Position numbers and translations under genes: made by a program. A DNA stretch of 22,874 nt from IMG/VR virus record IMGVR_UViG_3300025072_000056, one strand, 5' to 3'. Each line of letters opens with the position of its first letter. Positions within the stretch are counted from its first letter, which is position 1. Shown here piece after piece: positions 14,723 through 20,893 of the stretch. Origin of the DNA: a virus. Below the pieces are notes generated by a model. That model saw nothing but the letters and a program-made list of their open reading frames with translations, was not told where the DNA came from and did not search any database.

Positions 14723-15193
14723 ATGAGTTTAAGAAAAACCGTCTATCTCGCCGGCCCTATTGCCGAGTGTGATGACAAAGAAGCAAATGAATGGCGTGAT
14801 TGGGTGACAAGCCGATTGCCGTATGGTATTATTGGTATTTCACCACTCCGTTGTGAGCCATTAAAAGAGGGTATGAGGTATACAGATCCGGGTGCCACAG
14901 AAAAAATGTGGTCCGATCCTAGAGCAATAGCAACCAAGAATTGGTTAGATACTGAATCGTGTGATTTGGTTCTAGCCTATCTCCCACAAGAATTGAATGA
15001 ACGGCGACCATCATATGGTACCGTGATTGAAATTGGTTGGGCTATTGGTTTGAGAAAGCCCCTTGTAGTGGTATCAGATGATGAATATCTAATGGAACAT
15101 CCACTCATTCAACATAATGCTTCTTGGAGATTAGATAATCTTGAGGATGCTGTAGAAGTTATTACAGGTCTTTTTGGAGATTATGTACAATGA
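14723..15193 (+). CDS. Nucleoside 2-deoxyribosyltransferase / nucleotide N-glycosidase-like protein
   Basis: VYLAGPI, D...CDLVLAYL and SYGTVIEIGWA..LRKP match the NDT/DNPH1-type fold, including the candidate catalytic Tyr and Glu. Confidence 0.8.
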   Translation: MSLRKTVYLAGPIAECDDKEANEWRDWVTSRLPYGIIGISPLRCEPLKEGMRYTDPGATEKMWSDPRAIATKNWLDTESCDLVLAYLPQELNERRPSYGTVIEIGWAIGLRKPLVVVSDDEYLMEHPLIQHNASWRLDNLEDAVEVITGLFGDYVQ

Positions 15194-15203
15194 GGAATAT
15201 CCG

Positions 15204-15692
15204 ATGGCCGCAAAGAAGAAAAAGAAAAAACACCATTATGTAGATAACAAGAAGTTTTTGGAAGCAATAATCGAAAGAAAAGAATTGATAGCTGAGGCAG
15301 AAGCTCAAGGCGAACCTAAGCCACAGATTAGTAATTATCTAGGAGAGTGTATCCTGAAGATTGCTAATCATTTGTCTTATCGTCCTAACTTTATCAATTA
15401 TACTTACCGTGAGGAGATGATATCAGATGGTATCGAAAACTGCTTACAGTATATAGATAAGTTTGATCCCAACTTTTCTACTAATCCTTTTGCTTATTTT
15501 ACACAGATTATTTACTACGCATTTATTCGTAGGATTCAAAAAGAAAAGAAACAGCAATCTATTAGAGAAAAATTACTGAAAGAAACTGGTATAGAAAATA
15601 GAATTGCTTTACAGAAACACGATGATGAAAGAGATTTTCAACAGAGTTTCGATGAAATGTTGGACAAGTATGTATTCCATGCTGACGAATAG
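15204..15692 (+). CDS. gp55: Late-transcription sigma factor (gp55); start reassigned to ATG 15204
   Basis: HYVDNKKF, KIANHLSYRPNFINY, EEMISDGIENC and NPFAYFTQIIYYAFIRRIQKEKKQ motifs. SD GAGG precedes 15204. Confidence 0.95.
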   Translation: MAAKKKKKKHHYVDNKKFLEAIIERKELIAEAEAQGEPKPQISNYLGECILKIANHLSYRPNFINYTYREEMISDGIENCLQYIDKFDPNFSTNPFAYFTQIIYYAFIRRIQKEKKQQSIREKLLKETGIENRIALQKHDDERDFQQSFDEMLDKYVFHADE

Positions 15693-19855: not shown

Positions 19856-20231
19856 ATTAGTAGATTATTTAGCTACTCAACTGGCCAAGTTTTTACCGAA
19901 TATAAAGATTCAGTATGAGCACGTTGCGGACCATGATTACATTACATTAGTGGCATGGGCTGAACAGTGGGAGCCAAAAGATGTTTATGAACTTGCTTAC
20001 AAACAATCGAATTTAGATTTTTTCCAGACTTGGGATGAATGGTCGGCCGATATGCGGCCTTTACCTTTAGCAGTTAAGACTGAATTGCAGAGGGCTTTGA
20101 AAATTCATCAGCGCGCTGGAAATTTAGAACCACTGAGAGCATATGCTTTTGTTCTCAAATGGCTCTCCGCTTTAGGATGGGTCATCTTGTGGAGTGTATT
20201 TGTTATTATGTCAATAGTAACATTTGCATAA
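19839..20231 (+). CDS. Hypothetical protein with a C-terminal transmembrane helix (about 130 aa; probable TTG start)
   Basis: SD AGGAG (19826-30) lies 8 nt before the TTG at 19839. The C-terminus WLSALGWVILWSVFVIMSIVTFA is hydrophobic. Confidence 0.6.
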   Translation: MIKRNKLVDYLATQLAKFLPNIKIQYEHVADHDYITLVAWAEQWEPKDVYELAYKQSNLDFFQTWDEWSADMRPLPLAVKTELQRALKIHQRAGNLEPLRAYAFVLKWLSALGWVILWSVFVIMSIVTFA

Positions 20232-20234
20232 ATA
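20227..20234 (+). promoter_or_regulatory. Late promoter variant CATAAATA for hsp20
   Basis: One mismatch to consensus, immediately before the structured leader. Confidence 0.5.
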
Positions 20235-20238
20235 GAAG

Positions 20239-20302
20239 TGAGAAATGCCTTCGGGGTTTCTCAATTTAACCTTGCTTGATATTTAAGGAGGATACTGAAA
20301 TG
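20239..20302 (+). promoter_or_regulatory. ROSE-like RNA thermometer in the hsp20 5' UTR
   Basis: The 5' hairpin has a cUUCGg tetraloop (20239-63). The 3' hairpin CCUUGCUU (20270-77) pairs with the SD AAGGAGG (20285-91), leaving a bulged G. Confidence 0.7.
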
Positions 20303-20752
20303 GTAACTACACAAGCACTCGCAAACGTATTCGATCACTTTGATCGGAATCTTTTAACCCCCTATGCTGTAGGTTTTGACCGTGTCTTTGACCGGCTACA
20401 AGACTACGCATCACACCAGGCTGCATCAACTGGTTTCCCACCCTACAACATTCGTAAGGATAGTGATACAGATTTTACTATCGAACTGGCCCTTGCCGGT
20501 TTGTCCCGTGATGACCTAGAAGTTGAGGTCGGTGATGGGGTTCTTACAGTTCGCACTAAAGCCAAGAAGGAAGAGGCTGATGATGTAGAACTTTTACATC
20601 GTGGTATTTCATTTCGTCAGTTCAGCCGTAAGTGGACTTTGGCGGATGATATCGTTGTGAAAGATGCAAAGATGGAAAATGGGATGCTCTTGATTAATCT
20701 TGAGAGAGTTATCCCAGACGAGAAAAAACCAAGACTCGTAAAAATAGGTTAA
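20300..20752 (+). CDS. hsp20: Small heat shock protein Hsp20 (IbpA-like); start reassigned to ATG 20300
   Basis: FPPYNI, IELALAG, LHRGISFRQFSRKWTL, NGMLLI and C-terminal PRLVKI (IxI/V motif). Confidence 0.95.
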   Translation: MVTTQALANVFDHFDRNLLTPYAVGFDRVFDRLQDYASHQAASTGFPPYNIRKDSDTDFTIELALAGLSRDDLEVEVGDGVLTVRTKAKKEEADDVELLHRGISFRQFSRKWTLADDIVVKDAKMENGMLLINLERVIPDEKKPRLVKIG

Positions 20753-20783: not shown

Positions 20784-20870
20784 ATGAAAGAGATAATTGC
20801 TTTATTATCAGCTTGTGCTATAATAGCTTTTATTTATTTAACACCCGCCTTTTTATGGGTGATATTTTAA
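20784..20870 (+). CDS. Small hydrophobic protein (28 aa), not in the ORF track
   Basis: MKEIIALLSACAIIAFIYLTPAFLWVIF* with SD GAGG upstream; fills the gap between two genes. Confidence 0.6.
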   Translation: MKEIIALLSACAIIAFIYLTPAFLWVIF

Positions 20871-20893
20871 CACACTTACACACAGAGGAAATT

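Follow-up and report, generated by a model that had tools for sequence, protein, structure and literature searches.

Short ROSE-like RNA thermometers, as described by Krajewski et al. (2013, PMC3669281), consist of two hairpins, the second of which contains a U(U/C)GCU motif that pairs imperfectly with the Shine-Dalgarno (SD) sequence; in addition, the AUG is unpaired and the core is flanked by G-C pairs. Of the two hairpins, hairpin II melts and hairpin I does not (PMC3669281). A ROSE-type leader can also be bound by a protein: IbpA of E. coli, Cedecea and Vibrio binds its own leader via R93, R97 and K98, which creates an aggregation-sensor loop, and an aromatic residue at IbpA position Y34 matters as well (PMC10474464). 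With regard to viruses, a 2024 review merely speculates that their RNAs could act like thermometers (PMC10884466), and our full-text searches of the literature found no description of a ROSE element or an RNA thermometer on a phage or cyanophage hsp20. Here, we analysed the leader of such a gene, for which an earlier note, made from the sequence alone, had proposed a ROSE-type thermometer behind a late promoter.

Results

The window, by which we mean the whole 22.9-kb stretch of DNA analysed (IMG/VR record IMGVR_UViG_3300025072_000056), is part of the genome of an uncultured marine T4-like myovirus. It encodes the large terminase, tail sheath, tail tube, portal, prohead protease, scaffold and major capsid protein, the proteins UvsY, UvsW and gp47/gp46, a Dam methylase, a peptide deformylase, Hsp20 (20300-20752) and a second methylase, as well as a gp55-like late sigma factor on the + strand at 15174-15692 (phrog_234 'late sigma transcription factor', E 6.2e-60). 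Its capsid protein shares 73% identity with that of the OM43 phage Melnitz and 70% with those of Mosig and HTVC008M, two myophages of SAR11. IMG/VR contains several contigs that are identical or near-identical to the window, and a blastn search of the hsp20 locus against cultured phages gave no nucleotide-level match.

The hsp20 gene (+ strand, AUG at 20300, stop codon at 20750-20752) encodes a 150-aa IbpA-like small heat-shock protein recognized by Pfam HSP20 (2.4e-16), PHROG 432 (6.9e-41) and NCBIfam IbpA (109.6 bits, below the equivalog cut-off), which places the leader in the 5′ UTR of a small heat-shock gene. The counterparts of E. coli IbpA Y34, R93, R97 and K98 in the phage protein are F46, R106, R110 and K111. 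Directly 3′ of hsp20, a 28-codon hydrophobic ORF with its own SD occupies positions 20785-20871, and the ORF upstream of the leader, which ends at 20231, also has a hydrophobic segment at its end.

Direct reading of the sequence recovered, at the same positions, all elements that the earlier note had claimed for the leader. On the + strand, positions 20227-20234 hold a T4-type late promoter-like box, CATAAATA (NATAAATA), which shares bases with the TAA stop codon of the upstream ORF (20229-20231). The box is followed by hairpin I (20239-20263), a stem of high predicted stability that contains a U-G pair and a single bulged G and is capped by a c(UUCG)g top at 20249-20254, and by hairpin II (20270-20291), formed by CCUUGCUU (20270-20277), the loop GAUAUUU (20278-20284) and the SD AAGGAGG (20285-20291). 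The ROSE motif UUGCU (20272-20276) pairs with this SD, leaving G20274 unpaired. The element ends 8 nt before the AUG, and the whole leader measures about 60 nt.

RNAfold predicts that both hairpins form, and it bears out the proposed pairing of UUGCU with the SD around an unpaired G20274. At 25 °C, the predicted helix comprises C20270-G20291, C20271-G20290, U20272-A20289 and U20273-G20288, followed by the bulged G20274 and by C20275-G20287 onward; at 37 °C, a near-isoenergetic register turns the single bulge into a 1x1 mismatch of G20274 with G20288, so that G20274 has no Watson-Crick partner in either register. The lower flank of the helix consists of two C-G pairs (C20270-G20291 and C20271-G20290) and the upper flank of U-A, U-A, G-U and A-U, that is, the SD/anti-SD core lacks G-C pairs on its upper side. 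A weak, optional third hairpin (20293-20305, + strand), in which the spacer UACU pairs with the G of the start AUG and with GUA, is predicted here and in most, not all, near relatives.

Hairpin II has a predicted ΔG37 of -5.0 kcal/mol, compared with -4.7 kcal/mol for a Pseudomonas ibpA control. Warming from 4 to 50 °C raises the predicted unpaired fraction of the SD from 0.22 to 0.44 in the window and from 0.01 to 0.36 in the control. In nearest-neighbour melting, the isolated hairpin II of every sequence stays above 50% pairing until 54-76 °C, and since this puts the midpoint above 50 °C even for the validated-type Pseudomonas control, such curves do not discriminate. As a single sequence, the leader gains only modestly in folding over its shuffles (z -1.9), and the case for the structure therefore rests mostly on comparison.

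The earlier note had called for a search with the Rfam ROSE models. ROSE_3 (RF02523) matches 20239-20305 end to end (model positions 1-69; 28.6 bits, E 4e-4 in the 351 nt searched), a full-length match that nevertheless falls short of the gathering score of 43 bits; ROSE and ROSE_2 have no match in the same stretch. With ROSE_3, the Melnitz hsp20 leader scores 34.1 bits and the Pseudomonas ibpA positive control 69.2 bits. The alignment with the model shows a shared hairpin I layout (8 bp, G bulge, 2 bp and loop, with the sequence AUGCC...GGGU) and a hairpin II, CUUGCU...AGGAG, common to window and model. The classification as ROSE-type holds at the level of architecture: the leader has two hairpins, belongs to a small heat-shock gene, contains a U(U/C)GCU anti-SD and an unpaired G, and matches ROSE_3 end to end. 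The positive-control leader was taken from locus L088 (OQ572409.1, 'UNVERIFIED Pseudomonas phage Y7', 4784-6003); the sequence there has the appearance of a Pseudomonas ibpA of chromosomal origin, complete with ROSE_3 thermometer (69 bits), and the 22.6-kb unannotated record may be non-phage.

Several observations agree with the proposed late promoter. The window encodes a gp55-like factor and contains nine NATAAATA boxes on its + strand (at 2205, 4865, 6538, 6556, 7430, 10316, 11377, 13418 and 20227), all on the coding strand in intergenic positions and each preceding a gene (sheath, portal, scaffold, UvsY and others), with none inside a gene. ATAAATA falls outside genes (intergenic or at gene ends) in 9/9 cases on this strand, versus 27% for other 7-mers of the composition A5T2; this category makes up 6.8% of the window positions. 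Near relatives other than the window carry the box TATAAATA with 8/8 matching bases, and the window matches it at 7/8 (CATAAATA, with C instead of T as the first base). The distance of TATAAATA to the hsp20 ATG is fixed, at 68-74 nt in these relatives, in Melnitz, in Mosig and in loci L026 and L037, or 96 nt with an extra hairpin. In line with the earlier note, which saw no sigma32 promoter, there is no CTTGA...CCCCAT box upstream, and CATAAATA stands in its place. T4 late promoters are expected to start transcription about 6 nt after the box, which here is the foot of hairpin I, so that hairpin I would be 5′-terminal. We infer that a gp55-type sigma reads the NATAAATA promoters and that transcription of hsp20 starts a few bases after CATAAATA.

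In several near relatives (L008-L010, L014, L015 and L019), a sigma70-like promoter, TTGACA-N17-TAnnnT, adjoins TATAAATA about 100 nt before the hsp20 ATG, and hsp20 may be transcribed both early and late in these relatives. The window has no such promoter, because there the upstream ORF reads through to the late box. Loci L015 and L019 also reveal where homology with the window begins: identity is 100% in the 50-nt bin 20250-20299, which holds most of the leader, and only 62-76% in the middle of hsp20, and sequences upstream of the promoter are unrelated, with homology starting at the late promoter. From this break, promoter, leader and gene appear to travel together as a single cassette.

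A protein-guided scan of IMG/VR yielded 80 loci with Hsp20 proteins 47-100% identical to that of the window, and about 85 related phage loci provided a sample of 34 distinct hsp20 leaders. In this survey of phage hsp20 leaders, of the kind that the earlier note had suggested as a check, an anchored hairpin, comprising an outer helix, an unpaired G and an inner helix across GGAG, is kept in 34/34 distinct leaders, versus 3/137 controls, these being distinct starts with a GGAG that belong to other ORFs of the same DNA. All 34 contain UUGC or UCGC, the G of this UYGC is always kept, and a perfect helix occurs in 0/34. Where Hsp20 identity is 73-100%, the arrangement is (T/C)ATAAATA, 3-6 nt, hairpin I, AACCUUGC(U/A)U, loop, (A/U)GGAGG and AUG; near 50% identity, the upstream hairpins are quite different, and the core AACCU(U/C)GCUU...AAGGAGG is kept. 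The core is also present in the cultured phages Melnitz, Mosig, Syn9 and P-SSM4 and in the SAR11 podovirus HTVC115P.

Among the more distant loci (L023-L082, Hsp20 about 50% identical), leaders are longer, have two different upstream hairpins, keep the CCU(U/C)GCUU...AAGGAGG hairpin and have no TATAAATA within 110 nt. A manA RNA (RF01745, 58 bits) at L022:999-1207 points to cyanophage-like contigs. In L026 and L037 (1394-1488), an extra hairpin separates hairpins I and II, and the next gene, which is peroxiredoxin-like (about 1968), has its SD covered by a weak hairpin of the same type, UUUGCA...UGGAGA.

Covariation was assessed in nine distinct near relatives, aligned with MAFFT blind to structure, and the remaining leaders were handled by a scripted anchored parse, since wider MAFFT alignments that included Melnitz, Mosig and the cyanophages misplaced the loops. 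In the nine-relative alignment, 97.9% of cells are paired, compared with 88.9% in shuffles (0/500 shuffles reach the observed value), five pairs change on both sides, and controls with slid pairing all drop to 42-67%. Four of the 10 pairs of hairpin I carry compensatory changes among these relatives. An alignment of 35 distinct sequences, which was fitted to the model and hence leans to the structure by construction, is 96.5% paired, with compensatory changes in 12/16 pairs. In hairpin II, the changes seen in this larger alignment are U-A to A-U, C-G to U-A and U-G to C-G, the last being exactly the U(U/C)GCU alternation; as the SD is itself under constraint, hairpin II covaries at no more than two positions.

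The nine-relative alignment also served to build a covariance model, with the window sequence in its seed. This model has one match on the + strand of the 22.9-kb window (20237-20305, 77.7 bits), and all its matches with E<0.1 in 266 kb of loci lie immediately upstream of hsp20. Weak extra matches at L015:2285, L019:2408 and L077:1948 are terminator-like hairpins rather than ROSE elements. In a reverse scan of IMG/VR by DNA motif, 58/80 sites precede Hsp20 among the matches listed, of which, again among the matches listed, 54 stand before Hsp20 homologues and 4 before truncated Hsp20 N-termini. The anti-SD/SD motif ACCUUGCUU...AGGAGG was also encountered before a family of 90-95-aa ORFs in four viral contigs (weak phrog_28102; L111, L142, L178 and L187) and before a 67-aa ORF in L109 and L138.

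In a scan of species-representative genomes, the nearest bacterial Hsp20 proteins, at 42-54% identity, came from SAR86 single-cell genomes. Their hsp20 leaders (L094-L102) score 40-42 bits with the phage covariance model, the best bacterial match, and have no match to Rfam ROSE_3 at E<1. Where the phages have (C/T)ATAAATA, SAR86 has CTTGAT-N16-CCCCATAT, a sigma32-type promoter. The surroundings of hsp20 on a 181-kb SAR86 contig (L107, G002:C2:68000-86000) comprise genes for transporters and amino-acid metabolism, and this neighbourhood identifies the contig as chromosomal and non-viral. To our knowledge, the SAR86 hsp20 leader has not been described.

Discussion

The folding of the phage hsp20 leader into two hairpins is well supported by the sequence comparisons, and so is the view that a metastable, imperfect helix masks the SD. 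The reading that best explains the locus, and which we consider probable, is a ROSE-like thermometer leader on a phage hsp20 placed behind a late promoter. Late in infection, a gp55-type sigma would start the hsp20 mRNA a few bases after CATAAATA, and the resulting leader of about 60 nt would fold into hairpins I and II. Hairpin I, stable and positioned right at the 5′ end, probably shields the transcript and assists the folding of hairpin II. Hairpin II would hide the SD with the UUGCU anti-SD in a pairing that seems imperfect by design, with G20274 unpaired. Because this pairing is imperfect and metastable, translation of Hsp20 would be held low and would rise as the helix opens with temperature, as in Pseudomonas ibpA. 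The heat-shock leader would be intact, with its heat-shock promoter replaced by a late one.

That temperature is what opens the SD helix is the part of this account that we draw by analogy. It is suggested by the family resemblance to known thermometers, by the UYGC with its unpaired G in 34/34 leaders, by the stability of hairpin II and by the sigma32 context of the bacterial copies. Against temperature stand the shallow response predicted for the SD (0.22 to 0.44) and the lack of an upper G-C clamp in the modelled helix, as well as the thermal steadiness of the ocean, in which pelagic hosts seldom meet abrupt heat shocks.

Two other explanations keep the RNA and change or remove the signal. 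A serious rival, possible if rather unlikely, is that phage Hsp20 binds its own leader and represses translation until it is titrated off by aggregation-prone late proteins; such autorepression would not exclude temperature and may act alongside it. The phage protein is IbpA-like, with F46, R106, R110 and K111 at the mRNA-binding positions, and a late promoter uncoupled from heat shock would suit a load sensor for virion assembly. R106 and the other residues are, however, weak evidence, because the arginine equivalent to R93 is common among small heat-shock proteins, being present in 8/9 of those aligned (all but IbpB), and hence non-discriminating; we had considered R93 as a test of autorepression and rejected it as too widely conserved. 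Moreover, R97 and K98 are not conserved across all phage homologues. If instead no signal is involved, the leader would be a constitutive attenuator and stabiliser, in which hairpin I guards the 5′ end and an abundant late mRNA is held by hairpin II at a translation rate that is low and does not vary. A 5′-terminal hairpin flush with the proposed transcription start agrees with this explanation, as do the shallow predicted temperature response and the steady temperature of the ocean. Yet an attenuator needs neither the unpaired G nor UYGCU, both kept in 34/34 leaders across phages of cyanobacteria, SAR11 and OM43, and the same element occurs behind a sigma32-type promoter in SAR86, so that we regard a purely constitutive role as improbable.

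We strongly disfavour the remaining explanation, according to which the features are unrelated, hairpin I serving the upstream gene as a terminator or 3′ stabiliser and the pairing of the anti-SD arising by chance or from a MotA-box-like TGCTT. Hairpin I does start 8 nt after the upstream stop codon, but no T-run follows it, the terminator scan does not call it, and relatives with unrelated upstream genes keep it 3-6 nt after TATAAATA. Likewise, TTGCTTGA resembles a T4 MotA box, but the UCGCU variants break the box in TTGCTT and keep the pairing, and a MotA-type start would fall inside the coding sequence. Such a coincidence of independent features thus appears extremely improbable, and the ROSE-like thermometer leader remains the reading we prefer.

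The SAR86 copies indicate how this thermometer-like leader may have originated. As chromosomal copies have the leader behind a sigma32-type promoter, the phage version would be a heat-shock leader with an exchanged promoter, and the locus is best read as one in which the translational gate persisted and a late promoter took the place of the sigma32 promoter. This would make it a clean case of regulatory rewiring, in which the leader of a host passed to a virus intact. It can further be envisaged, with considerable caution and on balance against the odds, that with a host heat-shock leader taken over, a late promoter swapped in and an IbpA-like Hsp20 of its own, the phage has a closed feedback loop that senses both the aggregation load of virion proteins and temperature. 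If this loop is real, it would amount to a virus-encoded proteostasis sensor common to phages of cyanobacteria, SAR11, OM43 and probably SAR86.

The earlier note had also concluded from the ROSE element that the host is probably a proteobacterium. This does not follow: the cyanophages Syn9 and P-SSM4 carry the element, as do SAR11 and OM43 phages, and with so mixed a set of carriers its presence is no guide to the host. A marine proteobacterial host is nonetheless plausible on other grounds, namely the capsid affinities (70-73%) and the finding of the closest bacterial leader in SAR86.

The hsp20 gene belongs to the core gene set of marine cyanomyoviruses and their relatives, and a conserved translational gate on it provides a testable way into the question of when, and for what purpose, abundant ocean viruses produce a chaperone. 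We know of very few RNA thermometers or chaperone-feedback RNAs in phages, and the leader would add a widespread one to phage biology. The Rfam model seems to miss AU-rich marine ROSE-like leaders; that such variants score below the ROSE_3 threshold may explain why they have gone without annotation. The NATAAATA positions, together with gp55, constitute a ready late-promoter map for this phage. To the earlier proposal, the present analysis adds the gp55 and NATAAATA statistics, the SAR86 counterpart with its sigma32 promoter, the cassette boundary at the promoter and IbpA-type autorepression as a rival explanation.

Comparison with known systems

In phages, an mRNA structure with temperature-dependent translation is known from the cIII RNA thermometer of phage lambda. 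Unlike the phage hsp20 leader, cIII relies on two alternative folds of the whole mRNA rather than on a melting anti-SD hairpin, has no ROSE motif and belongs to a non-chaperone gene. The rhizobial hsp ROSE elements (Rfam ROSE and ROSE_2) are nearer, as they share with the phage leader the UYGCU anti-SD, the unpaired G, the 3′-proximal position of the hairpin and the association with small heat-shock genes (PMC3669281), but they comprise three to four hairpins and about 100 nt. In E. coli, the ibpA 5′ UTR (Cheng, Miwa and Taguchi 2023, PMC10474464) is likewise a ROSE-type leader before an IbpA-family protein, and the residues that IbpA needs for mRNA binding appear to be present in phage Hsp20, judging from the aligned sequences; the E. 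coli leader, however, is longer and has three hairpins. The SAR86 hsp20 leader has the same two-hairpin plan as the phage leader and the same core, CUUGCUU...AAGGAG, and differs in its sigma32-type promoter and in its location on a bacterial chromosome among metabolic genes.

Pseudomonas ibpA thermometers resemble the phage leader in their 5′ UTR of about 60 nt, their ibpA-type gene and their two hairpins only. Hairpin I is stable in both (in the phage, by prediction), with 8 bp, a G bulge, 2 bp and AUGCC...GGGU, and in both the U(U/C)GCU motif is imperfectly paired to the SD within a hairpin II of similar predicted stability. The phage leader departs from them in having a late promoter instead of a sigma32 one, in being viral, in scoring below the Rfam gathering threshold and in that its thermoregulation is proposed by analogy; it also differs from the P. 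putida thermometer in its AU-rich upper stem, where A-U and G-U pairs replace the G-C clamp needed there for repression.
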